Assembly (NCBI GenBank): GCA_029258755.1
Contig: JAPDKC010000009.1
Coordinates: 46,967 to 110,966, forward strand
Direction: 5' to 3'
DNA from: an archaeon
GTDB lineage: Archaea; Iainarchaeota; Iainarchaeia; Iainarchaeales; DTGL01
Length of the DNA stretch: 64,000 bases
The position numbers were made by a program, and so were the translations under genes. Under the pieces are notes generated by a model that made no database searches, was not told the DNA's origin, and saw only the letters and a list, made by a program, of their open reading frames with translations. Position 1 is the first letter of the stretch. Each line of letters begins with the position of its first letter. This document shows positions 822 through 22,720 of the stretch, one piece after another.

Positions 822-1050
822 GCTACCTCGCTAAGATTCTGCTTAATATTTTTGTGAAAAAACAGTATAAAAAATGTTTGTAGCGTTCTGAGCCTGCAAG
901 CGGGTATAGACACAGAAGAATTAGCACGCCCAGGCCGTGCCAGACCTTTGGAAATCTCCGCCCCAAGCCTTTATTATTCCGGTGCGATTACTAATAGTGC
1001 TAAACTCATATTTAATTCTTTTGTTCTATAAATAATTGTAAATATTAATT

Positions 1051-1671: not shown

Positions 1672-1676
1672 AGAAT

Positions 1677-3101: not shown

Positions 3102-3139
3102 CCGATACTTTTATTCTATCCTTTGTTATAATGCGCTAT

Positions 3140-3580
3140 CTATAAATATTTAGCCTCTATTTCCTCAATCTTTTCAAGTTTTCTTGCTGAATGTCCTCCT
3201 TTAAACTCCGCGTCTAGCCAGATATCTAGCAAAGTTTTCGCCAGTTCTGTCCCCACGATAAGCGCCCCCATTGTCATTATTTGGGCGTTATTACTAGCCC
3301 TAGACTTAAAGGCCGAGTAGGGATCATGGCACACTGTTGCCCTTACTCCTCGAACTTTATTTGCAGAAATGGCCATCCCCATACCAGTGCCACAGATAAG
3401 GATTCCCCTTTCACACGTTTTCTTCTTAATAGCGAGTGCTACCTTTATAGCTGCATCTGGATAATCTTCTTCCCCTTCGGGAGTGAAGTCAACTATTTCA
3501 TGGCCTTTCTCCACCAAGTATTTTTTTATAACTTCTTTAAGTTCAATCCCTGCTTTATCACAACCCAATCCAATTTTCAA
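3140..3580 (-). CDS. rpiB: Ribose-5-phosphate isomerase B
   Basis: 146 aa; GLGCDKAG...ICGTGMGMAISANK is the RpiB/LacAB signature. Confidence 0.9.
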   Translation of the reverse strand: MKIGLGCDKAGIELKEVIKKYLVEKGHEIVDFTPEGEEDYPDAAIKVALAIKKKTCERGILICGTGMGMAISANKVRGVRATVCHDPYSAFKSRASNNAQIMTMGALIVGTELAKTLLDIWLDAEFKGGHSARKLEKIEEIEAKYL

Positions 3581-3621
3581 TTAACTCACCCCTAAAAAGT
3601 GGTAGATTATATTTGAGTGTA

Positions 3622-4884
3622 CTACAATAATTCATGTAAAATGTCTGCCTTTTCACTAATTGATACTACCTCATACTCGCCCGCCTTGCCCTTGGGTCTT
3701 ACAATCGCGCTAGGTGCTGGTTTCTCAAATTTTTCGAAGGCTCGGCCAGTTATAATAAAGAAGATTTTGTCCTTCTTACTAATTTTTTTCTCTTTAGCCA
3801 ACTTTACCAATCCGGCGAATCCGATATAAGGAGCTTTTTCAAGTTCATGAGAAAGTTTGATTTTAAATTCCTCTAAAGAATCTTCAAAAACATCCTTGAT
3901 TTCTTCTACCTCTTTCGGACCGGCATCTGTTACAAGGCCCTGCGTAGCATTTAATATCTCTTCAATGAATGGGTAATTTTTGGCTGGATTGGAGCTTTGT
4001 AAAGTAGGCTCAAAGGGGGCTGCTGAACTTTTGCGTTCTGGCTTTGCAGATTTTCCCAAGTTATAAGTTTCCACGAAATAATTATTATCTTGCGATTGAA
4101 CACAAACGATTTTGGGAATATCGGATCTTTTTTCCAAATTATTTTCTACAAGCCTCTGGTGGCCCTTAAAAAAGCCTATTGCCCCGTAACCACTAGACAC
4201 CGTCTGAACATACATTGTTGCATCCGGTAGCTGTTCGAATTGTTCGTAAGCCAAGGTTGTATAAGGTTCAATCTTTTCATGAAATGTTGTAACAAATGTT
4301 AAATTGTTCTTTTTTGCAAAATTTTTTGCTATTGCAGATATCGTAGGAAAAGGCCCATCTACTGCTATAAAATGGTTGTTGCTTGTGATTAAGTCAGGAT
4401 TTATTTTATAAAAAGAATGTTTGGGAATAAAACAAAAAGATTGAATTCCAGCTTCTATAGCGTATGCAGTATAGGCTGCACCAGTATTCCCTGTTGAATG
4501 ATATACCAACCCATTATGCCCCAGTTCTTCATTTCTGCTAATAATTACTGAGCCCTCTCTACTCTTGAATGTCCCGGTTGGATTTTCAGAATCCACCTTA
4601 GCATAAAACTCAGCACCATTAAGATATTCTTCTAAACACTCTATTCTTTCTATCCGGGTAAAACCTTCACCCAAAGAAATAATATTTTCTTCTTTTTCTA
4701 CTGGAAGTAATTCAAAATATCTCCAGATATCTTCTCTATCTCGAAGCAATTTTTCAAAGCTCTCAATTCCTTTGTATATAAATTCCAGTGGACCTCCACA
4801 TTCACAATTGTTAAGCCTTTGGGTGCCTGGGAAAACACGGCCGCATTGTTTGCACCTTTGGAAAAATTTAACTCTTCCACTCAT
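3622..4884 (-). CDS. thrC: Threonine synthase
   Basis: N-terminal Zn-ribbon (CKQCG...CECGG), PLP-lysine motif NPTGTFKSR, and the Gly-rich loop SSGYGAIG of fold-type II PLP enzymes. Confidence 0.8.
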   Translation of the reverse strand: MSGRVKFFQRCKQCGRVFPGTQRLNNCECGGPLEFIYKGIESFEKLLRDREDIWRYFELLPVEKEENIISLGEGFTRIERIECLEEYLNGAEFYAKVDSENPTGTFKSREGSVIISRNEELGHNGLVYHSTGNTGAAYTAYAIEAGIQSFCFIPKHSFYKINPDLITSNNHFIAVDGPFPTISAIAKNFAKKNNLTFVTTFHEKIEPYTTLAYEQFEQLPDATMYVQTVSSGYGAIGFFKGHQRLVENNLEKRSDIPKIVCVQSQDNNYFVETYNLGKSAKPERKSSAAPFEPTLQSSNPAKNYPFIEEILNATQGLVTDAGPKEVEEIKDVFEDSLEEFKIKLSHELEKAPYIGFAGLVKLAKEKKISKKDKIFFIITGRAFEKFEKPAPSAIVRPKGKAGEYEVVSISEKADILHELL

Positions 4885-4921
4885 ACCATCACCTTAAGGA
4901 CCTTTAACGCTTAATCCACCA

Positions 4922-5599
4922 TCAACATATATTATCTGACCTGTGATATAATCTGACTGCTCTTTTGGAAAATTCCTTTAAATATCTCTGGCTTTTAAAT
5001 TTTTTTCTATTTCGCTCAACCACTATTGTTCCAGGAGCAATTGCGTTCACACAGATATTATACTTAGCCAGCTCAAGCGCCATAATCTTAGTTAGCATAT
5101 TTATGCCCCCTTTGGAACATGCATAAGCACATTGCCCCTCTATGGCAAATTCTCCGGAAATGGAACTTATATTGATTATTTTGCCTTTCCGTATTTTTAT
5201 CATTTCCCTTGCAACTCGTTGACCACACAAAAAGTAGCCTTTTAAGTTGGTATTAATGGTTCTATCCCATAGATCTTCAGGATAATCAAGGAACTTATGA
5301 TAAGGAACGATTGCAGCATTATTTATTAACACATCAATACGACCAAACTTTTTCATAACTTCTTTTACACCAACGTCCACTTGTTTTTTCTTCGAAACAT
5401 CTACTTTTCTGATAAAAAACGGCCTCTCTGGAGTTTCTGTTATTTGCCTTTTTATATCTCTCAAACCACGTTCGTCGATATCAAAAACAGCTACCAAATT
5501 ACCCAAATTAAAAAGTTTAAAAGCTAAAGCCCGCCCAATTCCATTTGCGCCACCAGTAATTAAAAAGACTTTTTTGTCTTCATTAAACTTTTCTTCCAT
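4922..5599 (-). CDS. Short-chain dehydrogenase/reductase (SDR); 3' end appears frameshifted
   Basis: TGGANGIGRA Rossmann motif and YACSK catalytic motif. The expected C-terminus ...SDYITGQIIYVDGGLSVKGP is encoded in another frame, ending at 4894. Confidence 0.75.
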   Translation of the reverse strand: MEEKFNEDKKVFLITGGANGIGRALAFKLFNLGNLVAVFDIDERGLRDIKRQITETPERPFFIRKVDVSKKKQVDVGVKEVMKKFGRIDVLINNAAIVPYHKFLDYPEDLWDRTINTNLKGYFLCGQRVAREMIKIRKGKIINISSISGEFAIEGQCAYACSKGGINMLTKIMALELAKYNICVNAIAPGTIVVERNRKKFKSQRYLKEFSKRAVRLYHRSDNIC

Positions 5600-5688
5600 C
5601 TTTCACCATCTTATTTTTTAAATTAAATGATAACTGCTATTTAAATAATTAATGTTTAGTAACGCCGGCGCTACTTGGCTAATTTTCA

Positions 5689-6837
5689 TCAGCAAACCCT
5701 AAAACCCGTGTATTCTCTCCTCTTTTCCGGGATCTCCCTTATGAACTCTTCCAGATACCTTTTAACCTGCAGCGCTTCATCTATGCTCTTTATCTGCTCC
5801 TTCGTTTTGAGGTTTATCAGCTTTGTTTGCTTGCCTCTTCCGATTTTGATCAAGAACTCCTCTTCAGCCTCGCCGTTTCCATTCTCTTCGAACTTCTCGA
5901 GCTTCCTCAACCGCTTCAGCAGTTTCCTCTTCTGCTCCTCCACTTTCTGGGTGAACACCTTAACAGGATCGAGGATGAAGTAGTTTCTCGGCGTTGTGTT
6001 TGAGCATCTTACCAATCCGCAGTTTATGAGCTCCTTCAGAACAGCGTAAACAGTTGCCTTGCAGATGCCGGTTTCGTCCATTATCTGCTTTGCGGTTTTG
6101 ACCTCGCTTGAAAGAAGGTTGCAGCGCTTCAGCTTCCTCATGCAGAGCTCTGCCCTTATGTCCAGCTGATTCAATGCAGTTTCTTTGTCTTTGAATGCTT
6201 TGGTATTGCATGGAACGACGATGTAGAATAGCCTGTTCCTAACAGCGTTTTCCTCAATGAAATCCTGAACGAACCTTTTGAAAGCCTGGAACTGCTCCCA
6301 TAATTTTTTCGACTTTCTCTTCTCAACTTCAAGCCCCAGATCAGCCAGATACTCATTGAGCGAGAGGTTCACGGTTCTCACAACTATCTGAATCGGGAAG
6401 CTCAATGCATTGAGAAAGTCGCGGAAAGCACTTATTACTGCTTTCTGCTCCATTGCGGAGAGCATGGAAAAGCTTATCGGCACCACCTGCAGAACAGCGC
6501 AGGCTTTGCCATCATCGAGGATTATCGCATCCCTTTCAACTCTCGAAACCCCTACAAAACGCCTAGCTTTCTCATCGAAGTAACCTGCTTTTGTGCCTGA
6601 GAGCTTGAACGAAACGATAGCTTTGAGCTTTTCAAAGAGGTTGAAGAATGCAAAGGAAACGCCGAGAGAGATCAAAACAAGGGAAAGCCCGACTTTTAGC
6701 TCAAAAAGCATTGCAGTTTTGAAGAATATTACTGCTGCAATGCCGGTAAATAAGCCTAACCAGAAAAGCTGCGGAAGGCTGAGCCCGAAGAGGATCTTTT
6801 CCTCATACTTAAGCTCTTTTGGAATCTCATAAGCCAT
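5689..6837 (-). CDS. PrgI/VirB3-like 2-TM domain plus VirB4-N-terminal-like domain plus C-terminal winged-HTH; no ATPase domain
   Basis: KELKYEEKILFGLSLPQLFWLGLF matches the PrgI/VirB3 family N-terminus, with two TM helices. The following region (DAIILDDGKACAVLQVVPISFSMLSAMEQKAVISAFRDFLNAL) resembles the VirB4/TrbE N-domain. The C-terminus is a wHTH (ETGICKATVYAVLKELINCGLV) plus coiled coil. No Walker A is present. Confidence 0.4.
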   Translation of the reverse strand: MAYEIPKELKYEEKILFGLSLPQLFWLGLFTGIAAVIFFKTAMLFELKVGLSLVLISLGVSFAFFNLFEKLKAIVSFKLSGTKAGYFDEKARRFVGVSRVERDAIILDDGKACAVLQVVPISFSMLSAMEQKAVISAFRDFLNALSFPIQIVVRTVNLSLNEYLADLGLEVEKRKSKKLWEQFQAFKRFVQDFIEENAVRNRLFYIVVPCNTKAFKDKETALNQLDIRAELCMRKLKRCNLLSSEVKTAKQIMDETGICKATVYAVLKELINCGLVRCSNTTPRNYFILDPVKVFTQKVEEQKRKLLKRLRKLEKFEENGNGEAEEEFLIKIGRGKQTKLINLKTKEQIKSIDEALQVKRYLEEFIREIPEKRREYTGFRVC

Positions 6838-6887
6838 TGCAAGACCTCGCAGAAAGGTTTAAATATTCCTGAAAGATAGTTTTAAGT

Positions 6888-7286
6888 ATGATAAAAAATA
6901 TTGCAAAACCATCAGGGGAAGAATCCAAAGGGAAATTTGACTGGGTTAAAAATTCTGCTTTAGCCGTGATCTTTTCCGCTGTCGCGCTTTGGGTTACTGC
7001 GTTCCCCTTTTTTATTAGAGGATTCTTCAAAGGGGCAAATAGGGAATTATTAGTCTTATTTGTTATTATCACGCAGTCCATTTTGGTTCCAGCTGTGCTT
7101 GTAGTCTCTTTGATAGGGCTAGCTTTGGGGGTTGTGGGGTTGATTTTAGAGCTTAGAAAGGCTGAAAAGGACCGCATCAGGCTGTTGACAGCAGTAATGG
7201 CCATTTGCGGTAATTTATTTGCTTTTATGGGCGCATTTGAAGTAGCGGCGCCGGTTTTTGTTCTTTCGTTTTGGAAGTATTTTTGA
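6888..7286 (+). CDS. Small multi-TM membrane protein (hypothetical); the strand call is uncertain
   Basis: 132 aa with 3-4 clear TM helices. The competing minus-strand ORF 6827..7294 is low-complexity (T/S/K/N-rich), as expected for an antisense reading of a hydrophobic gene. Confidence 0.3.
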   Translation: MIKNIAKPSGEESKGKFDWVKNSALAVIFSAVALWVTAFPFFIRGFFKGANRELLVLFVIITQSILVPAVLVVSLIGLALGVVGLILELRKAEKDRIRLLTAVMAICGNLFAFMGAFEVAAPVFVLSFWKYF

Positions 7287-7293
7287 TAGGCCA

Positions 7294-8256
7294 TTATATC
7301 ACGGCTCCTGTAACAGCTTTTGCAACAACCACAAGCTCGGGGTTCTGAGATGCAACCGAGGATAGGCCTTTCAATATTGCAATAACCAAAATTGCCGCAT
7401 TCACAACAGCCGCAACAATGAAGCCCACAGCAAGCGCGAATGTTCCAAAGTACTCAAGCGATGCAAACTGAGTTGTGAGCATGGAAATGCCTAAAAGCAA
7501 AGCGGCATCGATAACCTGCATGAACACGATTGCACCGAAGAAGTTCAGAATCACAGAATCCCAAGCGCGCAAAGGAATTATGAAGTAGAGGAAAATTCCT
7601 ATTGGGATGAAAATCACACCCAAAATCAAAAAGAGCTGGCGCAGTAAAAGGGTTATTGCAAGCAAGAGTGCTCCAAAAGCGTAAAAAACAATCCAGAGCA
7701 AATTCAGGGCATCGAGCTGAGCTATATCAAACAGCGAATCGAGCTTTTCAGTCCAGATTGTCAGAGCAACAGCAGAGCTGAGCTGGAGCATAAGAGAATA
7801 GAGCAGAAGAGAGGCGTTGACAGCAACCACAATAACAACAGCGTTTTTCAGCCACTCCTTTGCGCTTTTCCTCTGCACAGCATCGTACGAACCAAGAAGA
7901 AACTTCAAACCTGCAAAAACGAACAGCAAAAGGTAAAAGCAAGAGATTACTGAAACAATCACGAGCCACAGATCCTGAAAATCGTAAGGGTTTATGTTGT
8001 TCAGAACCATTGCTTTTATGAAATCGAGGATCGGAGCTACAAAGGAAACAACTGTGCCTTTGAAGGAGTCCAGAATCGCATTTGCAACGTTGCAGGCAGG
8101 TTCGAAACGGAATCCCAGAGGCCTGCGCTCGCGTTTGAGAGCAAAAGCACAAGAAACAAAAGCGGCATTAAGAAACGAGCTCTCACAGCAGACCACCCAG
8201 TACTTTTTTTGCTGCAAAAAGTGTTGCGAAGTAGAGCGAAACAAATATGCTTCCAT
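7294..8256 (-). CDS. Polytopic integral membrane protein (VirB6/CedA-like?)
   Basis: At least 6 TM helices across about 240 aa. It sits in the operon between the pilin-like and VirB3/B4-like genes. The true start may be the internal Met (MVLNNINPYDF...). Confidence 0.4.
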   Translation of the reverse strand: MEAYLFRSTSQHFLQQKKYWVVCCESSFLNAAFVSCAFALKRERRPLGFRFEPACNVANAILDSFKGTVVSFVAPILDFIKAMVLNNINPYDFQDLWLVIVSVISCFYLLLFVFAGLKFLLGSYDAVQRKSAKEWLKNAVVIVVAVNASLLLYSLMLQLSSAVALTIWTEKLDSLFDIAQLDALNLLWIVFYAFGALLLAITLLLRQLFLILGVIFIPIGIFLYFIIPLRAWDSVILNFFGAIVFMQVIDAALLLGISMLTTQFASLEYFGTFALAVGFIVAAVVNAAILVIAILKGLSSVASQNPELVVVAKAVTGAVI

Positions 8257-8443
8257 CGAAAGCGGTTTTTCCAGCTTTTTTGAGAGTAAACGAGAAAGTG
8301 CTTTGCTTTGGTGGTTCGGATATACTCAAAGCAACCGAACTCTGCGCGTATGGACCCTTCAGAATCCGAACTCAGGAATTCGGTTTTCGCTACGCCGTTT
8401 TCATCGGTTAGCGCTTTTATTCTCTGCCTGCCGTTGAAGAAAA

Positions 8444-9646
8444 CTATTTCCTTATTTGCAAGGGTTTTCCGTTTGAGGTGAGAACAGCGGTTGCAAGTAC
8501 ATAATCGTTCTCTGAAAAGCTGCCGGAATTGAGAGAAAGTGAGAGCTCTGCGGGCTTTGCTTCAATTAAACACTTATTGCTCAGATCGAACTCTTCGAAT
8601 GCGGAATAAAGCTTCATTTTGCAGGCAGGGGCTTTCGCAAAGCCAAGCTTAATGAGCTTTCTTTTTGGGCTGAGATTGGAATTAAGATCTATTAAGCCGC
8701 GCGCTGATTTTCCAAGAGCGCTTTTGCGGACCACGAAAAGAACACCGTAAGGCTTGAGTGTTGAAGCAATGTCGAAGTTTTCTTCGGAAAAGGAAAAGCT
8801 GTTCTTGCCAAAAGAAACTGTGAACTCATTTACCGGCATGGTTGATTCAATCATGTAGCGGGCTTCACTTATGCCATCTTTGAGCTCAACAGCGCTCGCG
8901 AGATTGAAGTCAAAGAAATAAGCCTTTGCTCTGAACTCATCGCTCAGCTTTAAGGAATCTGTTCGCTCTGTTGTTTTGTAGTAGTCGCATGAGGTCCAGC
9001 AGTAGATTGTGCATACCTCATTGCAGAACTGCGCGCAATGCGACTGCTTTCGAAAATGCTTTTCAATGAGCTTTGCTTTTATGAACAGCTCTGCTGAAAA
9101 ATTCAGATCTTTTTCTTTGCCTGCCGAGTAGCTTGAAACTTTTTGCGAGCCTATTTTTGAGCCATTGAGGAAAACGCTAAGATTGTCTGCAAGCACTTTG
9201 TAGGAGCGCTCTGTTTTGCAGTCGTGCTCTGCTGTGTCTTTTGGCAATACAATTTCAAAATTGCCTGCCACTAGCACCCTGCCGCTTGGCTCAGCATACC
9301 ATTGGTTGGAATCGAGATCAAAGAAAGATCTATCAATAGCAATTATCTTCAGCCAAGCGTTTTTTATTATGCCTGAGCTGTGCTGCTGCAAGTTAGCGGG
9401 CGCTTCGCTGAAATTGAGCGAGTTGTTCCAATTCCAAATGAAAGCATAATCCGGCAGTACGCCCTGCTTGCTTAGAAGGTTGAGATACAGATCCTCTTTT
9501 TGCTCAACGCTGAGGGATTCATCTGCAAGGATGTTCTCGCACTCTGACTTTTTCCAGCCGTTGAGATGATCGCAGTTGGCTGGCAGTATTGCTGAGTAAG
9601 CCGAGGTAATCAACAGTATGCAAAACAAAGCAACAAAGCCTTTCAT
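8444..9646 (-). CDS. Secreted cysteine-rich protein (signal peptide), hypothetical
   Basis: N-terminal signal MKGFVALFCILLITSAYSA and multiple Cys clusters (CDHLNGWKKSEC; HCAQFCNEVCTIYCWTSCDYY). No recognised domain. Confidence 0.45.
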   Translation of the reverse strand: MKGFVALFCILLITSAYSAILPANCDHLNGWKKSECENILADESLSVEQKEDLYLNLLSKQGVLPDYAFIWNWNNSLNFSEAPANLQQHSSGIIKNAWLKIIAIDRSFFDLDSNQWYAEPSGRVLVAGNFEIVLPKDTAEHDCKTERSYKVLADNLSVFLNGSKIGSQKVSSYSAGKEKDLNFSAELFIKAKLIEKHFRKQSHCAQFCNEVCTIYCWTSCDYYKTTERTDSLKLSDEFRAKAYFFDFNLASAVELKDGISEARYMIESTMPVNEFTVSFGKNSFSFSEENFDIASTLKPYGVLFVVRKSALGKSARGLIDLNSNLSPKRKLIKLGFAKAPACKMKLYSAFEEFDLSNKCLIEAKPAELSLSLNSGSFSENDYVLATAVLTSNGKPLQIRK

Positions 9647-9655
9647 GGAATCTCC

Positions 9656-9979
9656 TTAAGCTGCTGTTAAGAAGTTAACCAAGTATGGAGCGATCCAGAT
9701 TATGAGCAGGCCCATTACTGCATAAGAAAGCATCTGCTTGGCGCTTTCTCTTGCCTGTATGTTCTCGCCGGAAGCCATGAAGCGGAAGCCTGCAAATGTA
9801 ATAACCAAGACAGCAACAATGGAAATTAGTGTTTGCACAACCGTGTATATGCGCTCCAATGGCTCCTTTATTTTTTGCAGGTTCTCATCGCTGGTATCAG
9901 CTGCGTGCACAAAAGGCGCAGCTGAAAGCATAAAGAAAATCAAAGTCGGGACCAAAAGAGGAATTAAAGCTTCTTTCAT
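9656..9979 (-). CDS. VirB2/TrbC-like (CedA1-like) small 2-TM pilin-like protein
   Basis: 107 aa: a signal-like N-terminus ending AAPFVHA, then two hydrophobic helices separated by a short polar loop. An SD-like GGAGGTG lies 5 nt upstream of the ATG. Confidence 0.4.
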   Translation of the reverse strand: MKEALIPLLVPTLIFFMLSAAPFVHAADTSDENLQKIKEPLERIYTVVQTLISIVAVLVITFAGFRFMASGENIQARESAKQMLSYAVMGLLIIWIAPYLVNFLTAA

Positions 9980-10095
9980 AGCAGCACCTCCAAGGTTAAT
10001 TAAGGTGCTGTGCTGAACCGAAAATATATTAAAAAGAAGGGTGAAAAGAGTCTGTGGAAAAGGGCGACTATAAAATAAAAAGAGTGTAAAAAATA

Positions 10096-10923
10096 TTATT
10101 TTTCTAAATAGGCTATTGTTTTTTCTATTAGCTCAGATACTTCCAAAAATCTGCCTACTATAATCTTTTTTCGGAGAGCTTCTTCTGTTTCCTTAAAATC
10201 GGGATAACGTGCACCAACATATTTAACAAGCACCATTGACAGAACACTAAATATGAGCAAAAGAATATACGTCTTTTTCAGTGTTTTGTATAGAAAGTTA
10301 AAATTAAATCTTTTCTTATTAGCTAACTTAGCTTCTTTCAGCAAGCGACTTGAGGAAAATATGGAAGACTGTATCGCTAAAAGTTGAATAGAGTCTATCT
10401 TGGCCATTTTTTTGATACTTTTAATTAATTTAGGATACTCCTCAATCAAGTTTGCAATAGTTTCATCTTCAGAGCTTTTCAAAGAAATTTTATTAAGATT
10501 TAGGCTTTTAAGGTAATTTTTCACCTTTTTGATAGCACTTTTATCACATCCAGCGATTTTTAACGTGTAGCTTTCCAAAGAACTTAAATTGGAAAGCCAT
10601 TTATCCCTAAATGGTTTGAGCATTTTAATTAATTGATCTACCCAGTCATGGCCAAACTCTTTTAAAGAGTTAACTTTGAATTTTTCTAAACCAAATCTAC
10701 GTAAAAGCTCTTCATTCTCGTTTGAAAACACTTCTTGAGGCCATAAAAGGCCTATGTCTACAATCGCTCCTTTGCTGGCTTTCTCTACAGATTGTTGAAG
10801 AGCAAATAATGCCTGTGGGTAATATCTGTGAGCGTAGGCATACTTGGCCATTTCTAAGTCTCTCTTGGCGTACTCATACCATTTTTTTGAATCCAAACAA
10901 AGACAATGTTTAGAGTTCTTCAT
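10096..10923 (-). CDS. HEPN-domain protein with C-terminal TM segment
   Basis: The N-terminus YEYAKRDLEMAKYAYAHRYYPQALFALQQSVEKASKGAI resembles the HEPN fold. A hydrophobic segment (ILLLIFSVLSMVLV) lies near the C-terminus. Confidence 0.35.
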   Translation of the reverse strand: MKNSKHCLCLDSKKWYEYAKRDLEMAKYAYAHRYYPQALFALQQSVEKASKGAIVDIGLLWPQEVFSNENEELLRRFGLEKFKVNSLKEFGHDWVDQLIKMLKPFRDKWLSNLSSLESYTLKIAGCDKSAIKKVKNYLKSLNLNKISLKSSEDETIANLIEEYPKLIKSIKKMAKIDSIQLLAIQSSIFSSSRLLKEAKLANKKRFNFNFLYKTLKKTYILLLIFSVLSMVLVKYVGARYPDFKETEEALRKKIIVGRFLEVSELIEKTIAYLEK

Positions 10924-11061
10924 AAAATTTATTGTTTAAAGTAAAGCAGAAAAAAGGACCCTTGGCGTTATTTATATTAAGAGGGCAATCAATAGGATTT
11001 TATTTTTTATTAATAATAGATGTATTATGGCTAGAAAAAAACTTAGGGAAATGCCTAGACG

Positions 11062-11451
11062 TTGTCAAAAAAAATACTGGGCAGGGAAGAAGTACTACTT
11101 GTCAAAAGCAACACCAACCGTAAAAGTTTCAGGATATGTAAGAAAAAAGATGAGGCTTATAATACAATCATTCTAGACCGCACAATTAAATTTCTTGAGG
11201 CTCGTTTGATTGAAGCAGGCGTAGCACAAATTAGCCCGCAACTATATGTATGTATTAAGGTTATAGAAAAAATTAATGACCTCAAGGAAATTTTTGATGC
11301 AATTGAAAATGGCGAATCTGATAGGGCCCTTGCTCTGCTCGTGGAACGGGGCATATTTGAGAGTATAGAAAGTGCGAGAAGGAAGGAAGATATGTTTAGA
11401 AAAATAGAAACATATTATTGGGAAGAAATAGGGGGAACTTTAAGTGTATAA
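11062..11451 (+). CDS. Hypothetical protein
   Basis: ORF only. Its end overlaps the next ORF by 8 nt, suggesting an operon. Confidence 0.3.
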   Translation: MSKKILGREEVLLVKSNTNRKSFRICKKKDEAYNTIILDRTIKFLEARLIEAGVAQISPQLYVCIKVIEKINDLKEIFDAIENGESDRALALLVERGIFESIESARRKEDMFRKIETYYWEEIGGTLSV

Positions 11452-11746
11452 AGAACCTTTAGATCGTGATGCTCTAATAAAGGCAGTACTAAAATTTTTG
11501 TGTATAGATGATCTGCTGGCCAGCGAAAAGAAAAAGCTTAAAAAGGGAGAATTAGTTGAGTTTCTTAAAGAAGAACCCCAACTAAGAAATCTGCTCAATG
11601 AAGCATTCGAAAAAGGGTGCAAACCGTATTTAAAAAAGGAAATAATAGATAACAAAGAATTGGAACGAATCTACGGAGAGTGTATCTGGAGGATGCACTC
11701 TTACCTTAAACAGCTAGAAGAAGAAAAAGGAAAGATAAAGAAGTAG
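11444..11746 (+). CDS. Hypothetical protein (GTG start)
   Basis: ORF only; overlaps and is probably co-transcribed with 11062..11451. Confidence 0.3.
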   Translation: MYKEPLDRDALIKAVLKFLCIDDLLASEKKKLKKGELVEFLKEEPQLRNLLNEAFEKGCKPYLKKEIIDNKELERIYGECIWRMHSYLKQLEEEKGKIKK

Positions 11747-11750
11747 AATT

Positions 11751-12266
11751 TTAATAATCCTCCGGCTTCATAAATGTACAGCTGCAACCATCAAGCACAA
11801 CCCATATTCTGCCCTTTTCAATCACTCGTAATCTCATATATTCTGTATCTTCTGGATCCGGCTTCTTAAGAAGCTCAATTCCTTTCTTTACAATTTCCTT
11901 GTAATTGTCCTTTACTTCTTCGAATAGGTTCATTGTGAAAACTATTGGCTTTCCATTAGCAAATTCACCTACCTTTACCAGAACACCATCTTCAATCGCC
12001 TGCTCAAGCGGATAGCTGTCAATCACTTCGCCGAAGAATTCTTCTGGAGAAGGAGCGGCCGTTTTCTGGCCACTCCCGTTGTTTCTTATGCGCTTCACTT
12101 CGAACTCAAGGAACTGATTAAGTCTGTTTGTTAATTCCTGCTTTACCTCGAGCATGTCATCGGTTTCTTCAAGCGCAACAGTAGCACCAATGAGTATGCC
12201 TTTGCTTTCATAGTTGCCAAGGTTGATCTTTCTGGAAACGCTTACTGTGAGCTCTTTAAGCTTCAC
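11751..12266 (-). CDS. Hypothetical protein
   Basis: 171-aa ORF with no recognisable motif. Confidence 0.35.
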   Translation of the reverse strand: MKLKELTVSVSRKINLGNYESKGILIGATVALEETDDMLEVKQELTNRLNQFLEFEVKRIRNNGSGQKTAAPSPEEFFGEVIDSYPLEQAIEDGVLVKVGEFANGKPIVFTMNLFEEVKDNYKEIVKKGIELLKKPDPEDTEYMRLRVIEKGRIWVVLDGCSCTFMKPEDY

Positions 12267-12629
12267 CTGCGATCACCTCCTTTGTATTGGTTTCTGCAGC
12301 GCCAGTCAAGCGCTTCAGCCCAGCGAACAGGCTCAGGAAGCAGGTAGTCATAGCTCTGCTTTTCGCTGAGCTTAACCGAATTGAAAAAACTTTTTTGCAA
12401 GCGAGCCACCTCCTAAAAGTTTTTTCTGGAGGCGGTTTGTGGATTTTGGTGGTATTAAATCCTTTCCGAAAGGCGCGGAGCGTGCTTGCTTGCAAGCAAA
12501 AGGTTTAAACCAGCAAAAGCCAGGCCGGAAAGAAAAAACTGGAGGTGGCGAGCGAAAAAGTTGCAGAGAGGTTAAGCGGAAAGCGGCAGAGTACAGATTT
12601 TTCAATGTGGGCGGCCAAAAATAGTAAAA
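12267..12629 (+). ncRNA. Candidate structured ncRNA (possibly SRP/7S RNA); strand tentative
   Basis: This 360-nt intergenic block has much higher GC than its surroundings and only short overlapping ORFs of odd composition. There is long-range complementarity: GCCACCTCC (12405-12413) with GGAGGTGGC (12540-12548), and AGTTTTTT with AAAAAACT. The motif CCAGGCCGGAAAG resembles the SRP RNA helix-8 apex. Confidence 0.35.
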
Positions 12630-13316
12630 TTAACGTCTAGACGGCCATTTTTTCCTGTTTTCGTTAATAAATCTCGCGGGAGAAACTGCAATAATGGGTG
12701 GTTTAATATCCCCAGTACTTTTGCCAAATTTTTCTAATAATTCAGAATCATTAGTGATAAAATACTTACAACCTTGGTAAACTGCTTGGGCAAGCAGATG
12801 AGCATCATTGCATAATAAACCGTGTTCTGAAATAAAAACCCCTGCTATTCCAAATAATTCTTTACTTTCTCTTGCTATTTTTGCATGTTTTTTAAGTTTA
12901 TTAAAGTATTCTTTGTTTTTAAGATAAATATCAAGATAAGTTCCTTTGGGAAATTTTTCTTTTCTTAATCTATAAAACTCTTCAATGGGAATAAAATTTC
13001 TATCCATATATCTTAAAATGTATTTTTCAAAAAGGACACTTAGAACTTCGGTCATGACCAGAGGCGAATAATAAAATTCGAAACCTTTGTTTTCACGGCA
13101 GACAAAGTGTTCAACGAATTCATACGACTGATAAAAAGTTTTTATGTATTTGTTACTATTAGTCCTTTGTTGTTCAATAAAGTCATTCTTTTCTTTTGTT
13201 GTTTGTTTTTGTGCAAGCAACGAATGAAAAATCAGCCAGTTAGCAATTACATTTGAATCAATTAAAGATTTTATCACAATTCTTGCATTTCCTCCAACCT
13301 TTTTTACTGGAGGCAA
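12630..13316 (-). CDS. PIN-domain protein
   Basis: Acidic residues at PIN positions: LIDSNVI ... VMTEV ... ITNDSELL. Confidence 0.4.
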   Translation of the reverse strand: MPPVKKVGGNARIVIKSLIDSNVIANWLIFHSLLAQKQTTKEKNDFIEQQRTNSNKYIKTFYQSYEFVEHFVCRENKGFEFYYSPLVMTEVLSVLFEKYILRYMDRNFIPIEEFYRLRKEKFPKGTYLDIYLKNKEYFNKLKKHAKIARESKELFGIAGVFISEHGLLCNDAHLLAQAVYQGCKYFITNDSELLEKFGKSTGDIKPPIIAVSPARFINENRKKWPSRR

Positions 13317-13962
13317 ATTATTTCCTCCTCCTAATATAGAAAGACACTCTTTTGCCGTCCCTTGTTTTAAAACTAACTTTAATTCTCCTTTTCAGTTTTT
13401 TACTCTTCCTGGTTTTTCTTTTTGTTTTCCCCATTTTACTCTATTTTATAACGACTTTATCTTTATTAATTCTTTTTGTTCCTCGTTGCTGTTAACTTAT
13501 TTGGGATCTCATATCTGTTTGGCTTTTTAATTTAAGAATATGGATGTTTGGTACATGCAAAAGTTCCACATCCCTACTTAGTTAACATTACCTTGTTCCT
13601 CCAAGGCTTAAACGAAATAGAAGTATTTTAAAAGAGAGCTAACAAGAAAATAAGGGGCAAATATGTCCAATTCATCTTTCTTTATTATTTACCGAAATAG
13701 AAGTCTGCAAAATAAACATTAATTTTTCCAACATTGTATTATAAAGCGGGCAAAATTAAAAATAGAATTTTTTAAGGCGAAAAATTCGAAAAAACCCCTA
13801 CTTTAGCTTTAAAGCGAAAAACAAGCTGTTTAGGCGCTTCTTTTACTAGCCATAAAATTTATAAACACTACAAAGCGTATAATTATTATAGTGGGTAAGT
13901 CCAAGCCAGCTCGTGTACCGGATGGTGCACTTTGCCAATAGGCTGGCTTGGGTCCACAATTT

Positions 13963-14589
13963 CTATTTCCATAATATCATGTTTTCTTTGTTCTCAATTT
14001 TCTCTTCAATTATTCTGAAGTAGTGATCATCGCCGGCGTTGAATTTTCTGTTTATGCTCCATGCAACAAAATCCACCACCTGCAGCTCGTTGCTGGCAAA
14101 AGATGGCTTGTGGAATATCTCTATATCCAACTCCTTGCACTTTCTTTTCAGCTTCCTCTTAATATAGCCATTGAAGTCCTCTCTCACAAGAGTGTTTGTA
14201 TGTTTTTTATCTATTGTGATTATCACTTTTCCTTTGTCCAAATTGAGCTCGTTTAGCAGTATGCCACACAGGTAATTGTAAAGCTTGTTCTTCACATCGA
14301 AAAGATAATCTTTAATCTTGTTTTTCTCAACAACTATGGCAAAAATGCGGCAGTCTGTTCTCTTAATTCTTTCTAGCACATATTCTCTTATCCGTTGGTT
14401 AGACTTGTTCGCTTTGATTTCAGGCATTTGCTTTATGGTTTTCTTCAGCTTTATCTGTCTCAGCCTTTTGATTATTCTTGCTAATTTCTTCGGCTCATCA
14501 ACCAAAACAGCAGCAACTGTGAAATACTTTGAGCCGAACTTTCCCAGATCACCGCTCTCATCTATGCAAACATAGTTAAGCCAGCCCAT
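13963..14589 (-). CDS. DUF3800-family protein
   Basis: N-terminal YVCIDESGD motif characteristic of DUF3800. Confidence 0.5.
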   Translation of the reverse strand: MGWLNYVCIDESGDLGKFGSKYFTVAAVLVDEPKKLARIIKRLRQIKLKKTIKQMPEIKANKSNQRIREYVLERIKRTDCRIFAIVVEKNKIKDYLFDVKNKLYNYLCGILLNELNLDKGKVIITIDKKHTNTLVREDFNGYIKRKLKRKCKELDIEIFHKPSFASNELQVVDFVAWSINRKFNAGDDHYFRIIEEKIENKENMILWK

Positions 14590-14720
14590 GGGAAAACCTC
14601 TGGATACGCTTAGCCGTTAAAGAATTCCTGGTACTCTAACTTATTTAAAAGCAATGGTAGAGAATTTCCGCTGACTTTTTTCACCACACGTTTAAATAGC
14701 TGAAAAAGAGGGATTAATTT

Positions 14721-15138
14721 ATGGGGGCTGGTTGTATGCATGCAAAAGAGGACTCTCTATCGGATTCTGAAATAACAGCAAAGCTTCTGGAGTTCATGTT
14801 GAGGAACAGAAAGGAGCTGAAGTTTGTTTTTGAGGAGCTTGAAAAGTACAGAATGTTAAAAGCACGGGGTGGTGGTGTTGGAGTACAAGGATCTGAAGCA
14901 CTTCGAACAGGTGCACGGAAAGCTGTTTGTGTATCTCCTTGAAGAGCTGGATAAATTCATGAGGGGATCTGATGAGGGATCTGAGCCGGAGGAGATTCAA
15001 CTCAAATAATCCGCAGGCAAACTACATAAAAATTCAGGAGAGGATTGACTCTTTGGAGCACAGGTTGAGGGAATTGGACCAGCTTATAATTGAAGGGATG
15101 AGCAGAATAAGCGAGCTGGAGAATAAGTCGAATACGTG
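14721..15138 (+). pseudogene. Coiled-coil hypothetical gene broken into three successive reading frames
   Basis: Frame 1 covers 14721-14942, frame 3 from about 14868 to 15008, and frame 2 from about 14973 to 15138. Each picks up where the previous one stops. The first junction sits at an A4 run. Confidence 0.35.
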
Positions 15139-15193
15139 AAAAAGGTTCGGGTAAACGCCTGTTTTAAATTGCATTGGCACAGTTGGTAATCTT

Positions 15194-16600
15194 TTAAAAC
15201 CCCGGGGGTCTACGATGCTCATAACGTCCTTTGAATAATGTGCTTTTTTGTTTAGTAGATTTCCTTTGCCTCTTGCCTTGAACTTTTTGATAACCTCTCA
15301 CTCTCACGGGTTTTTTAGTCAGATTATTTTCCATTTGATAAAGCTGTTGCCTTGTTTTTATCTTTTTCTTGTATAAGCTTACAAATCTTGGAAGATCTGT
15401 TGCGAGGACAGCGACGGTTTCTTTTATTAAGTTCAAACCTAACATGGAAAAAATTGCAGGGGCTACCCTGTCATCACTGACCTCAGTGCATATTTCACTG
15501 CCGATATCTGGCCGAATTATTTTTAAATTATCTTTAATAATGTCCTCGATAGATTTTATCCAAAACTGCGAAATCCAATCCCCTAACAGGATTTTAAGCA
15601 ACCTAAAAATAAAAATTTTTAAAATTTCTTCATCAATTTTTTCAAGTGTCTCCCTCTTTTCTTCTAAAGACTTCATAAACTTACGTAGTCTATCGTCATG
15701 AATGTTCTCGATTGTTTCCTCCTCAGTTATTCTTCCAGAGAAAGAAAGGGAAGTAGTAATAAGTTGGCTTAAAATTTCAATGTCACTCTTGCTAGGTTCT
15801 TTACCCTCCCTCTCTTTCTGCAAGATACTTGCTGCCTTAAGACCTGCGTAGTAAAAAGCTTTTTTTGAAAGATAGGGGGTAGAATTTGCGCGTAGCTTTT
15901 CAAGCAGGTCTGCTTTAAATTCTTTAGTTGCATAGTTGGGAGCAAGGATTTTTTCAATGAACTTTTTATCCTCAAAGGGCAAGCTTGGGGATACCACGAA
16001 ATCGCCGTTGTTTATATCTTTTGAAAAAACATATACGGCAGATATCTCCGCAAATTTGCCATCTCTGCGCGACAACGTTTTATAGGTCTTGATCCATTTA
16101 GGCTGTAAACTCTCGTCACCGCCATCTTTTACAAAGAAAAATTTTGCCGAATCTCGCCCTTCTTCAAAATACCTCAAACTGAGTGTTATTTTTTCACTTA
16201 CATTTATCTCTAAAAAGACGATATATGGCCCAACTATTCCTTTTTTTGCCCTCCTTAAAGCATCGTACAGGGCATTCCAATCATGTTTCCCAAATTCCCA
16301 ACATAAGGTCTTCAAACCAGACGGTTTCTTATCTATCTTTAGTTCTTCGAGGGAAACGGTTTTAACTTCAACAAAAAATTCAGTGCCATCTAAAATTATC
16401 CTGTAGTCAGGAGTCTTGCTCGTGTGCTCTAAAGAAGGTTCGTATTCAATCTCATCCGCACCTTTATCTATGAAAAAGAACCCAACCTTAACTTCGGGAA
16501 GTGTTTGTCTAGGTCGCCTCTTTAAATTTTCAATCAATTTTTTATTATTTTTTATTGCATAAAGTCGCTCATCATTTAAAAGACTCTCAGTTTCGCTCAT
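15194..16600 (-). CDS. PD-(D/E)xK nuclease-fold protein, 468 aa (hypothetical)
   Basis: Textbook motif PDYRIILDGTEFFVEVKT (PD-x12-E-x-K) in the N-terminal third. A basic tail (KKPVRVRGYQKVQGKRQRK...) follows. Confidence 0.45.
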   Translation of the reverse strand: MSETESLLNDERLYAIKNNKKLIENLKRRPRQTLPEVKVGFFFIDKGADEIEYEPSLEHTSKTPDYRIILDGTEFFVEVKTVSLEELKIDKKPSGLKTLCWEFGKHDWNALYDALRRAKKGIVGPYIVFLEINVSEKITLSLRYFEEGRDSAKFFFVKDGGDESLQPKWIKTYKTLSRRDGKFAEISAVYVFSKDINNGDFVVSPSLPFEDKKFIEKILAPNYATKEFKADLLEKLRANSTPYLSKKAFYYAGLKAASILQKEREGKEPSKSDIEILSQLITTSLSFSGRITEEETIENIHDDRLRKFMKSLEEKRETLEKIDEEILKIFIFRLLKILLGDWISQFWIKSIEDIIKDNLKIIRPDIGSEICTEVSDDRVAPAIFSMLGLNLIKETVAVLATDLPRFVSLYKKKIKTRQQLYQMENNLTKKPVRVRGYQKVQGKRQRKSTKQKSTLFKGRYEHRRPPGF

Positions 16601-16665
16601 AACAATAACGGGCTACCAAAACATTTAATATTTAATTATCTCACACAGAATCCTGCAACAAATCC

Positions 16666-17895
16666 TTAAAGTTCCCTATTTTGCCCATCTAAAAGTAACT
16701 GCTGCTGCATTGAAGCCAAAATCTGCTGAACTCTGTCAGGATTCGCCTTTGAAAGGCTCTTGACCATATCTAACAGCTGAACCAGAACAATTGAGCTTTT
16801 CTCATCCAGATGCTTTATCTCGTCCACTTCGTATTGGGCTGAAGGTTTCAATGGAAGCCAGCACTTCTCGCAGTATTCAAAGGTGACATCGTTTACATGG
16901 CTACAGCGGGGGCACTTCAAAGGCTTCAGAATATCTTCTTTCTTTTCCTCCTTCTTCAGACCGTAGAGTTTCAGGATTGCATCGTCCATCTGCTTGCCGC
17001 TCAAGTGCACATAGCGAGCTGCCATATCCGAATCGCGGACCCATCCAAAGTATTCTTTCATCTGCGCTTCCGTCAAGAACTGCGCCAAGTAGGTTGCTCT
17101 GGAGTGTCTGAAGTTGTGCGGGTTCACAGGTTTTTTCAGGCCTACCCTTCTTGCAATTTTGTGAAGCTGGAGCCTTAGTGCATCATAAGTCATCAAAGAA
17201 ACTTTGTCCACATTTGTGCTGACCCAGAGAGGCGCTTCCGGATCCTCTCTTCTGGGATGGTGGTTTATCCACTCCAGAAGGTAAAGAGCAGCACTAACCA
17301 GGCGGATTCTTCGCATGCCTGTTTTTCCGTTTATTGTGATCTTACAGCCAAATTCATCAAAGGCGACATGCTTTATTTTCATTGTTCCGATTTCGCCAGC
17401 TCTCGCACCGGATTCCCAGAGGACCGCAACAAGCGCTTTGTCCCGTTTGTTCTCGCAGAATTTGAGAAGAAGCTTTACATCCTCTGGTGTGAGCAGCTCC
17501 TCAGGAAGCTTCTTGATTCGGTTTTCCTTGACACGCATCCAAGCAACACATTCTGGGTACTCGTTGTTGCCGTTGAGCCACTTGTGGAACACTTTAAGGA
17601 CCTTGATGTAGGTGTGCACGGTTTCTTGAGATAGCCCCCTTCTCTTGAGCTCTGCTATGAATTTCATGTAATCTTCCTTTGTGGCTTTATCAAAGTCTTT
17701 ACCCAAAGCGATAGCAACAATTTTCAGAATATTTGTTTGTCTTGATATTCTCGCAACACTGAGATCTCTGGCAAAGTTGTAGTCGTGGAATTTGAGAATC
17801 AGCTCTTTGTTGTGCTTCGATATCTTTTTGGATTTTTTAATGGATTCTATTTCCTTATCTAAAAGCTTCTTATAATCGTGGAATTTTTCATACAT
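16666..17895 (-). CDS. Tyrosine-type site-specific integrase/recombinase
   Basis: C-terminal catalytic region contains R (WESGARAGE), HNFRHSRATYL and ARYVH. An N-terminal SAM-like core-binding domain is present. Confidence 0.85.
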   Translation of the reverse strand: MYEKFHDYKKLLDKEIESIKKSKKISKHNKELILKFHDYNFARDLSVARISRQTNILKIVAIALGKDFDKATKEDYMKFIAELKRRGLSQETVHTYIKVLKVFHKWLNGNNEYPECVAWMRVKENRIKKLPEELLTPEDVKLLLKFCENKRDKALVAVLWESGARAGEIGTMKIKHVAFDEFGCKITINGKTGMRRIRLVSAALYLLEWINHHPRREDPEAPLWVSTNVDKVSLMTYDALRLQLHKIARRVGLKKPVNPHNFRHSRATYLAQFLTEAQMKEYFGWVRDSDMAARYVHLSGKQMDDAILKLYGLKKEEKKEDILKPLKCPRCSHVNDVTFEYCEKCWLPLKPSAQYEVDEIKHLDEKSSIVLVQLLDMVKSLSKANPDRVQQILASMQQQLLLDGQNREL

Positions 17896-17955
17896 TTAAC
17901 TACGCCCTCCTGCACCGAAAAATTTAAAAAGGCAAGAGGCGGAGGGCGCCGAACA

Positions 17956-18096
17956 AAAAAGCCAACGCCCAGGCCGGGATTCGAACCCGGATCGCAGCCT
18001 TCCTGCAATTTGCTGAATATTAGCAGCGGGTTGCTGGGGATAATAAGGACCCGCTGGAGGTCCTTATTTCGACAGGGCTGCATCCTAACCCTTAGA
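17956..18096 (-). tRNA. tRNA-Asp(GTC) with a 69-nt intron in the anticodon loop
   Basis: Minus-strand read: acceptor GCCCAGG/CCTGGGC, T-arm CCGGGTTCGAATCCCGG, anticodon stem CAGCC/GGCTG with loop CT-GTC-G...A. The intron forms strong hairpins (AATAAGGACC/GGTCCTTATT). No CCA is encoded. Confidence 0.6.
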
Positions 18097-18156
18097 CTAC
18101 CTGGGCACAGCTTAATAAATTATAAGTTAGGTGCAAGGTTTAAAAAATAATTACTT

Positions 18157-21177: not shown

Positions 21178-21262
21178 GGTGGGGTGGCCCAGTGGTCCAC
21201 GGCGGCAGCCTGCTAAGCTGCTGGGCGTAATGCCCGCCCGGGTTCGAATCCCGGCCCCACCG
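21178..21262 (+). tRNA. tRNA-Ser(GCT)
   Basis: 85 nt with a type II layout: acceptor GGTGGGG/CCCCACC, a 3-bp D-stem, anticodon loop CT-GCT-AA, a long variable arm (GGGC-GTAAT-GCCC) and T-arm CCGGGTTCGAATCCCGG. Confidence 0.85.
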
Positions 21263-21351
21263 CTTTCGAGTTTTTAATAATAAACCAACTAATTCGCTTT
21301 TTTGACAGAAACGAAAAAAATAAATACAAGCTTACATACATACTTCATACA

Positions 21352-22636: not shown

Positions 22637-22720
22637 GCAGGGGTACCGAAGCGGCCAAACGGACCAGGCTCAAGACCTGGTGGCTTAGTGCCTTCGGCGG
22701 TTCGAATCCGCCCCCCTGCA
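22637..22720 (+). tRNA. tRNA-Leu(CAA)
   Basis: 84 nt: acceptor GCAGGGG/CCCCTGC, anticodon stem CCAGG/CCTGG with loop CT-CAA-GA, a long variable arm and T-arm GGCGGTTCGAATCCGCC. Confidence 0.85.

Follow-up and report, generated by a model that had tools for sequence, protein, structure and literature searches.

The stretch of archaeal DNA considered here (64,000 nt, positions 46,967 to 110,966 of contig JAPDKC010000009.1, assembly GCA_029258755.1; called the window throughout) carries an intron-containing tRNA-Asp(GUC) gene, behind the 3' end of which lies the gene of a tyrosine integrase, followed by a gene for a near-orphan protein, a pair of overlapping small open reading frames (ORFs), a DUF3800 gene with a structured motif at its 3' end, genes for PIN- and HEPN-domain proteins, a type IV secretion remnant, a run of housekeeping-like genes and a second copy of the last bases of the tRNA (Table 1). 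An earlier note on this DNA, made from the sequence alone, had proposed an integrated element with the integrase at its attL end, which is borne out by the many different tRNA neighbours of related integrases, by the absence of the integrase at the same locus in relatives and by a near-identical copy elsewhere. It had also looked for the far end of that element in the AT-rich stretch behind the DUF3800 gene, where none was found; the RNA motif at the 3' end of the DUF3800 gene is the main unexpected result of this analysis.

The tRNA gene is matched by Rfam RF00005 (17966-18106 on the reverse strand, 48.9 bits) and, with introns allowed, is called by ARAGORN as tRNA-Asp gtc i(38,69), i.e., with a 69-nt intron after position 37/38; the default ARAGORN run overlooked it. 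That an intron-containing tRNA-Asp lies here had been seen correctly, even if the end given for it, 18096, cuts 10 nt off the gene. The recombinase at 16666..17895 had likewise been rightly described as a complete tyrosine recombinase (Pfam Phage_integrase PF00589, 9e-19): an alignment of 32 homologues shows no change at R165, K191, H260, R263, W285 and Y295 or at C328 and C342 of the zinc ribbon, in which C331 and C345 are kept in at least 90%. Its position on the same strand, 3' of the tRNA, also stood, while the gap between the tRNA 3' end and the integrase ATG amounts to 70 nt and not to the 60 nt reported before. An SSV-type (type I, “suicidal”) integrase is argued against by the ORF being of full length in the integrated state, with the att core outside it, 70 nt upstream of the ATG, and by the lack of any integrase fragment elsewhere in the 64-kb window. 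An exact-sequence look-up of the window integrase gave no record.

More than 3,000 homologues of this integrase, ~50% identical, are spread across Iainarchaeota/Diapherotrites, Micrarchaeota, Thermoplasmatota and other lineages, and such broad conservation raised the possibility that the recombinase is a conserved chromosomal Xer-type resolvase having a tRNA for a neighbour by chance, a possibility that was therefore tested four ways. Among curated families and solved structures alike, archaeal XerA is indeed nearest; the window protein, however, reaches just 109.9 bits with the NCBIfam XerA model (NF040815), the cut-off of which is 220, and is ~120 aa longer than XerA, with an extra zinc ribbon. 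Nor do the family members keep a stable neighbourhood: in a sample of 80 integrase loci (named by L numbers here) from species-representative genomes, scanned for tRNAs with introns allowed and judgeable in 77 cases, 43 have a tRNA on the strand of the integrase whose end precedes that gene by 42-156 nt (median 69); 13 amino acids are represented among these tRNAs, besides one to which ARAGORN gave a stop anticodon. The gene is, furthermore, absent at the locus in three relatives, and locus L002 has a tRNA and integrase block 97% identical to that of the window on a backbone that is only ~75% identical. From all of this it follows that the recombinase is a mobile-element integrase, the probability left to a chromosomal resolvase being negligible, and by the same comparison of loci it has moved horizontally.

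Homologues 41-48% identical to the window integrase are also encountered on contigs binned as bacterial (L024, L029, L032, L041, L044, L052, L054, L055, L059 and L069; Thermotogaceae, Elusimicrobia, Zixiibacteriota, Phycisphaerae and others), and ARAGORN found no tRNA adjoining the integrase in these ten loci, which may be mis-binned archaeal or free elements, or else a branch of the family with another target. Assemblies of relatives break at or beside the tRNA-integrase block, the L001 contig ending just upstream of its tRNA-Asp and L002 inside the integrase gene, and the integrase of L001 is disrupted by a duplication of ~56 nt; the breaks in L001 and L002 fit strain heterogeneity or repeated copies of the module in those communities.

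A comparison with relatives at the tRNA-Asp gene, which had been recommended in the earlier note, was made by fetching them through the neighbouring Trm11-like methyltransferase. Three relatives (L082, L085 and L087-89) were found to keep the order radical-SAM, Trm11-like methyltransferase and tRNA-Asp without an integrase. L082 and the window cease to be similar precisely where the tRNA ends (17964) and are similar again in an amino-acid permease gene at 551-139 of the window (81% identical), and a PspC remnant in L082 matches 606-677; the insertion relative to L082 therefore covers the whole interval. When the 3' exon of the tRNA-Asp was used as a metagenome query, one further occupied site only was recovered (L081). 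A short-chain dehydrogenase (SDR) gene following the tRNA-Asp in L085 was considered as pointing to an alternative boundary and dismissed, its product being 27% identical to the window SDR and not its orthologue. A separate observation concerns L083 (1391-1944, compared from window position 18167), a contig from a strain 99.2% identical over the methyltransferase gene and completely divergent right after it: a flavin-reductase-like ORF lies there on the opposite strand, and a tRNA-Asp is missing from the next 550 nt. The DNA could have been rearranged here or have received a different insertion, or the contig could be an assembly chimera.

The search for an attR repeat of the tRNA 3' end, also suggested earlier, returned a single second copy, at 926-937. 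The sequence in question, CGGCCTGGGCGT, is present exactly twice in the 64 kb even if one mismatch is allowed (0.04 copies expected), two mismatches on the tRNA's own strand add no further copy of the core, and neither repeat finding nor a word-7 BLAST search of the window, with the tRNA and flanking bases as query, gave a repeat longer than 12 nt. Beyond the second copy lie PspC (603-821) and the permease (139-551), both syntenic with L082, and the flank of this copy, GC-TAATTCTTCT, resembles the native post-tRNA flank of L082, TAATCCTTCT (shuffle p = 0.018 when anchored). Four other loci of the family (L005, L017, L023 and L066) have same-strand repeats of 11-15 nt that end exactly at the tRNA 3' end and recur 6-10 kb downstream; no repeat of that kind was seen in three times as much control sequence. 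Since published archaeal att sites include some of just 8-13 bp (PMC8371274), the 12-nt repeat, the L082 synteny and the similar repeats in other family loci together place the island at about 938-17964, i.e., 17.0 kb. In trinucleotide composition, ~1-18 kb of the window is atypical, mildly so at 1-5 kb and 14-18 kb and more strongly in the secretion block than anywhere else in the window (z = 5.6-5.9); right of 18 kb the backbone value is reached again.

What this island contains was compared with the integrase loci by tblastn. L010 is an intact relative with its genes in matching order: a tRNA-Cys is followed there by the integrase, DUF3800, TrbC, VirB6-like and PrgI genes as in the window, with a 742-aa VirB4/TraG-type ATPase (P-loop_TraG 1e-27) and a TrmB gene in addition; DUF3800, the pilin or the 171-aa ORF is found in L014, L011 and L016 as well. 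No VirB4-family ATPase is encoded among the ORFs of at least 90 aa in 1-18000. The integrase, the small-ORF pair, DUF3800 with its motif, the VirB2/VirB6/VirB3-type module and the gene order of L010 all suggest that the element derives from an integrative-conjugative element, and it has decayed, its secretion ATPase gone and its PrgI truncated and fused to a regulator fragment. L001 has a counterpart of this 430-nt fragment at 4175-4573 (91.5% identical), as part of a TrmB gene that stands alone there (171 aa), 2.6 kb from the integrase. By the in-frame fusion at 6118/6119, a scar left by deletion or recombination, two elements that otherwise differ are linked. The genes between this scar and the second att core (1051-5599) are absent at the L082 locus and have a composition z of ~2.5; they may represent a separate or older insertion.

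Taken together, we consider it probable that the chromosomal tRNA-Asp(GUC) gene of this archaeon, itself a probable member of the Iainarchaeota (DPANN), has had a mobile element of ~17.0 kb (~938-17964) inserted at its 3' end. Several points, nonetheless, weigh against this. L082 is not a clean empty site, its tRNA and permease being separated by 2.4 kb of genes of its own, and none of the other integrase-free relatives is a perfectly clean one either; the att repeat is just 12 nt long and was selected after the search, with an estimated p of ~0.01 for the tRNA end, correct strand and correct side; the similarity of the attR flank to that of L082 is weak (p ~0.02 anchored, 0.17 unanchored); in most family loci the 10 kb available contain no repeat; and the 1051-5599 genes are housekeeping-like (RpiB, threonine-synthase-like) and stand next to no other integrase of the family.

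Some of these points, along with several signs of decay and a BLAST E of ~1 for an unrestricted search, would suit an origin of the 12-nt repeat by chance, the true attR having been lost or the integrase being a stranded remnant in a patchwork of unrelated insertions. Such an origin appears improbable for a 12-mer that is GC-rich in a genome of ~38% GC, has the strand and the side expected of an attR, stops where the tRNA stops, like the repeats in four other loci, and is located within ~100 nt of the point where L082 synteny resumes. The metabolic look of the 1051-5599 genes speaks for a composite island instead, in which the integrase element would end at ~5690-6118 (at the PrgI::TrmB scar or the TrmB stop), 938-5689 would be an older island at the same tRNA or relocated chromosomal DNA, and the core copy at 926-937 would date from an earlier event. 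The elements delimited in relatives span just 6-10 kb, and the 6118/6119 scar is evidence of rearrangement at this very place, which also fits; yet no intermediate att core is found between the ends, even with two mismatches, and the 1-5 kb part is compositionally atypical as well and absent from the L082 locus, so that a composite island seems rather unlikely.

For the single ~17.0-kb element, the integrase would have acted on two identical stretches of 12 bases, one at the 3' end of the tRNA and the other a short core carried by the element ~70 bp upstream of the integrase gene, which stays intact on integration (the lambda or pNOB8 “type II” arrangement). Integration would have regenerated the tRNA at attL (17965-17976) and displaced the original 12-base end to attR (926-937); the empty site is predicted to read ...GGGTTCGAATCCCGGCCTGGGCGT followed directly by GCTAATTCTTCTGTGTC, and the junction of the excised circle is predicted as GGCGGAGATTTCCAAAGGTCTGGCA-CGGCCTGGGCGT-TGGCTTTTTTGTTCGGCGCC. 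The presence/absence polymorphism, the att repeat, the targeting of tRNAs, the gene order in common with L010 and the loss of the ATPase are all visible by comparison of the loci; we infer the position of the crossover, as well as a former transfer between cells via the secretion module, which would now be lost. Excision may still be possible, because the integrase and both cores are intact.

The cargo directly after the integrase differs completely between the window, L001 and L081, the integrases of the latter two being 96-98% identical to that of the window, and this is normal mosaicism. The 468-aa protein, which is shared with neither of them, has just three homologue clusters among 1.8 billion representatives and no Pfam, PHROG, PADLOC or NCBIfam match; a P-[DE]...E-V-K motif, conserved in all homologue clusters, is present in its N-terminal domain, for which a single-sequence AlphaFold model was unusable (pLDDT 31), and the motif suggests that the protein may be a PD-(D/E)xK nuclease. 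A function shared by the post-integrase genes of the window and L001 was considered and rejected, as the two have no similarity and the L001 gene encodes a PDDEXK_1 nuclease while the window gene belongs to no family. What had been taken for a coiled-coil gene broken into three frames is instead a pair of overlapping small ORFs on the plus strand, with tblastx relatives in eight integrase loci (L003, L005, L007, L010, L011, L013, L014 and L038) and an identical two-frame layout in L007 (11244-11526) and L013 (12909-13293). The pair, with motif A, LKHFE..HGK.FVY.LE, and motif B, MRD.....FNSN.P..NY...ERI..L, is probably a module common to integrase loci rather than a broken gene, and may act as a regulator or directionality factor. 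The region 12267-12629, between the 171-aa ORF and the PIN gene, is relatively GC-rich, has only short overlapping ORFs on both strands and no tblastx relative, and may be a decayed gene or a non-coding element.

The view that the cargo is related to defence found no support: PADLOC-DB 2.0 models gave nothing significant (best, PDC-M04A with DUF3800 at E = 0.0016; nothing else below 0.003), with the caveat that close homologues of the DUF3800 protein are often found inside type I restriction-modification operons. Nor is DUF3800 a core gene of the integrase family, with only 2 of the 80 integrase loci having one.

Table 1. Features of the window discussed in the text, with copies of the structured motif in other loci (positions are those of the window unless a locus is named)
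Feature	Position	Strand	Remarks
tRNA-Asp(GUC) gene, probable integration target	17966..18106	-	5' exon 18106-18070, intron 18069-18001, 3' exon 18000-17966
attL core CGGCCTGGGCGT (putative)	17965..17976	-	last 11 nt of tRNA + 1 nt
Tyrosine integrase, 409 aa, intact	16666..17895	-	catalytic domain, C-terminal zinc ribbon (CPxC...CxxC) and helical tail
Near-orphan protein, 468 aa	15194..16600	-	cargo specific to the window element
Pair of overlapping small ORFs	14869-15009 and 14972-15139	+	opposite to integrase direction
DUF3800 protein	13963..14589	-	Pfam 6e-15; DE and QxxD motifs intact
Structured motif at DUF3800 3' end	13868..13972	-	paired core 13891-13957
AT-rich ORF-free spacer	13317..13867		upstream of PIN gene; holds CGAAATAGAAGT pair; not a boundary
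PIN-domain protein	12630..13316	-	Pfam PF01850 2e-5
171-aa ORF	11751..12266	-	tblastn pieces in L016, L014, L011
HEPN-domain protein	10096..10923	-	Pfam PF05168 3e-10
Type IV secretion (MPF-FATA-like) remnant	6119..9979	-	GC 44.5%
TrbC/VirB2 pilin	9656-9979	-	Pfam TrbC 2e-11
400-aa protein	8444-9646	-	in secretion remnant
VirB6-like protein	7294-8256	-	34% identity to L010 protein in matching position
155-aa ORF	6827-7294	-	in secretion remnant
PrgI/VirB3-like	6119-6837	-	Pfam PrgI 2e-7; cut near residue 240
TrmB-like regulator gene, 3' part	5689..6118	-	in-frame fusion to truncated PrgI gene
SDR	4922-5599	-	Pfam/NCBIfam
Threonine-synthase-like PLP enzyme	3622-4884	-	Pfam/NCBIfam
RpiB	3140-3580	-	Pfam/NCBIfam
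GlnD-like nucleotidyltransferase	1677-3101	-	Pfam/NCBIfam
LigT-like	1051-1671	+	Pfam/NCBIfam
attR core, second CGGCCTGGGCGT copy (putative)	926..937	-	same strand as tRNA, integrase side
Motif copy, L014	13126-13232		
Motif copy, L093	1069-1184		
Motif copy, L095	3814-3910		
Motif copy, L105	5891-5988		
Motif copy, L216	4502-4617		
Motif copy, L219	8624-8723		
Motif copy, L224	8688-8789		

The DUF3800 gene at 13963-14589 on the reverse strand had been identified correctly, as had the AT-rich (GC 0.316 for 13001-14000) and ORF-free (no ORF of at least 40 aa) nature of 13317-13962 behind it, where the distal boundary was thought to be. Residues D10, E11, Q170 and D173 of the DUF3800 protein are invariant in the alignment, and the DUF3800 fold is predicted to be RNase H-like (PMC10910872, PMC7736814). 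An element of only 4.8 kb (13317-18096), with this AT-rich region and its inverted repeat as the far end, would make use of an ORF-free stretch with a strong hairpin that does exist. No tRNA-derived repeat is found at 13317-13962, however; the TrbC, VirB6-like and PrgI genes and the 171-aa ORF beyond it recur downstream of related integrases, L082 synteny resumes only below ~680, and the hairpin is linked to DUF3800 also in restriction-modification operons with no integrase nearby, so that an element this short is very improbable. As for the smaller signals noted in that region, both copies of CGAAATAGAAGT are there (13613 and 13693), albeit weak evidence, as two or more matches also came from 14 of 100 shuffled sequences, and the spacer 13317-13867 has no tblastx relative. 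The inverted repeat, too, is real (RNA fold z = -3.5), though what it belongs to is a conserved motif at the 3' ends of DUF3800 genes and not a boundary signal.

The first relative of this motif, found with the ORF-free region as the query, was a copy in L014, 77% identical and with compensating changes in the outer stem; a covariance model (R1) built from three motif copies matched L014, L093, L095-104, L105-114 and L216-224, and the motif was found to adjoin every DUF3800 homologue family fetched. It consists of three stacked helices, namely, P1 (GYGG/CCRC), a covarying P2 and an invariant P3 hairpin (GUGCACC-AUCC-GGUACAC), and an ACUUAC internal loop is also conserved. The motif starts at most 15 nt from the DUF3800 stop codon in the window, L095-104, L216-218, L219-223, L224 and L010 (a weak match); in L105-114 it lies within a read-through extension of the DUF3800 ORF, in L014 it is 580 nt downstream of DUF3800, and in L093, a viral contig, tblastn gave no DUF3800 homologue within 3.5 kb of contig. 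Overall, seven of the eight archaeal lineages examined have the motif starting that close to a DUF3800 stop codon. The surroundings of these copies vary, from the order tRNA-Thr, integrase, DUF3800 and motif in L095-104, where the DUF3800 gene overlaps the end of the integrase gene, through type I restriction-modification operons with DUF3800 directly after hsdM (L105-114, L216-218 and L219-223), to L224, where the DUF3800 gene adjoins a divergently oriented type I operon. A search for DUF3800 homologues gave ~170, and close archaeal ones, 51-65% identical to that of the window (L105-114, L216-223 and L224), are mostly embedded in type I restriction-modification operons, where their genes overlap the hsdM end and precede hsdS, sometimes with HEPN genes alongside.

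For the pairing statistics, 13 distinct motif sequences were used: 93.5% of cells pair, versus 26-44% if the partners are slid by 1-3 columns, compensatory changes on both sides are present in 9 of 20 pairs, and not one of 500 shuffles reaches the observed covariation score. The same three helices, with compensatory changes in 11 of 21 pairs, were obtained independently with MAFFT and RNAalifold. The occurrence of G-U pairs and the far lower score of the reverse strand with the model (15 versus 53 bits) point to an RNA on the sense strand of DUF3800. Rfam gave no match at E <= 10 for the window motif, or at E <= 1 for those of L105, L095 and L093, the library searched including DUF3800-I and DUF3800-IX (PMC11701678). 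IMG/VR scans for further copies returned ~100 pattern matches and one true match (L093), with no covariance model match in the 79 listed IMG/VR pattern-match loci that were searched; a model match in L069 was dismissed for being antisense and inside a helicase ORF.

The hairpin, which also follows DUF3800 genes that have no integrase nearby, is a candidate DUF3800-associated structured RNA and not an att site or element boundary. Most likely the 3' end of the DUF3800 transcript folds into this motif, as a structured RNA acting together with the predicted RNase H-like protein. There is, in our estimate, an even chance that it represents a new class of RNA at the 3' ends of archaeal DUF3800 transcripts, both in integrase modules and in type I operons, that is an obligatory partner of the protein, for example by guiding it, mimicking its substrate or inhibiting it in the manner of an antitoxin.

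The intron of the tRNA-Asp raises a question of its own, namely, whether it has anything to do with the element. Integrase-free L082, L085 and L087 have tRNA-Asp introns of 74-84 nt, that of L082 being identical to the window intron at 60 of 69 positions, and across the family loci predicted introns are present in 23 of 43 integrase-adjacent tRNAs versus 17 of 41 other tRNAs (Fisher p = 0.28). The element as the source of the intron or of the whole tRNA is ruled out by L082, in which both the intron and the upstream region are similar to those of the window, and introns attracting or repelling the integrase are ruled out by the lack of enrichment. Since integrase-free relatives have it too and integrase-adjacent tRNAs are not enriched in introns, the tRNA-Asp intron is a lineage trait, incidental to the element. 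Among the introns of the window, L001, L002, L081 and L082, the 5' half (AAAUAAGGACCUCCAGCGGGUCCUUAYUAUCCCC) is kept even in L082, on a backbone ~75% identical, and a 31-nt segment flanked by CCAGCAACC repeats in L001 and L002 is missing from the window intron (18001-18069); the intron may be under constraint beyond splicing. Two further tRNA genes, tRNA-Ser(GCU) at 21178-21263 and tRNA-Leu(CAA) at 22637-22720, both on the plus strand, lie 3-5 kb from the tRNA-Asp and keep their position in L002, L082 and L087; no integrase adjoins either of them in the window, even though tRNAs for Ser and Leu are the commonest neighbours of the integrase family.

The island itself, a decaying tRNA-targeted integrated element, is routine biology. 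The integrase family, with its recurrent arrangement of a tRNA, ~70 nt, a zinc-ribbon integrase and an 11-15-bp core at the tRNA end, could nevertheless help to delimit mobile elements in archaeal metagenome-assembled genomes, and the pilin, VirB6, VirB3 and ATPase modules on small integrative elements in DPANN bear on whether DPANN type IV secretion genes are cellular or mobile in nature. The DUF3800 3' motif, for its part, adds a well-supported archaeal case, at a fixed position, to the unexplained link between DUF3800 and structured RNAs; if the obligatory-partner reading were true, the fixed gene-then-RNA layout would offer a way into the DUF3800/non-coding RNA association that has been unexplained since 2017.

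Among known systems, the type II (pNOB8-type, lambda-like) archaeal integrases (PMC8371274) resemble the one described here in having an intact integrase gene, a tRNA 3' target and direct att repeats, and their elements in having mosaic cargo and exchanging integrase modules. The window family differs from them in its C-terminal zinc ribbon and helical tail of ~110 aa (zinc is not mentioned in PMC8371274), in a core of 11-15 bp at the extreme tRNA 3' end versus the 40-50 bp of pNOB8, and in its hosts, which in the loci fetched are DPANN, Thermoplasmatota, Methanoperedens, Bathyarchaeia and others instead of Sulfolobales. Thaumarchaeal integrative-conjugative and cryptic elements (Krupovic et al. 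2019, PMC6563490) likewise integrate at tRNA genes, intron-containing ones included, with att sites down to 8 bp, and have VirB4, VirB6, VirB3 and pilin modules, the cryptic ones keeping VirB6 with the rest of the conjugation apparatus lost. Those elements, however, have a median size of 64 kb, as opposed to 17 kb in the window and ~10 kb in L010, and belong to a different host phylum; in the window element no TFIIB, ParB or VirD4 was seen, and it has the DUF3800-plus-RNA module. The SNJ2-type integrases of haloarchaeal pleolipoviruses (PMC5861418) also use a short att core (13 bp according to PMC8371274); SNJ2 is a virus, whereas no virion genes were recognized in the window. For the catalytic domain, no curated family or solved structure comes closer than archaeal XerA (P. 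abyssi 4a8e; NF040815), from which the window integrase is set apart by its sub-cut-off score, the extra C-terminal domain, the tRNA neighbour and its presence or absence at the locus.

The motif, finally, invites comparison with the eleven unrelated structured RNA motifs beside DUF3800 genes, DUF3800-I to DUF3800-XI, described without a function (Weinberg et al. 2017, PMC5737381), which it resembles in being a conserved structured RNA candidate in that very neighbourhood. It is set apart from them by the lack of an Rfam match, i.e., via Rfam only, so that it could equal one of II-XI absent from that library, and it differs from them in its fixed place, at most 15 nt from the stop codon and on the sense strand, in archaea.

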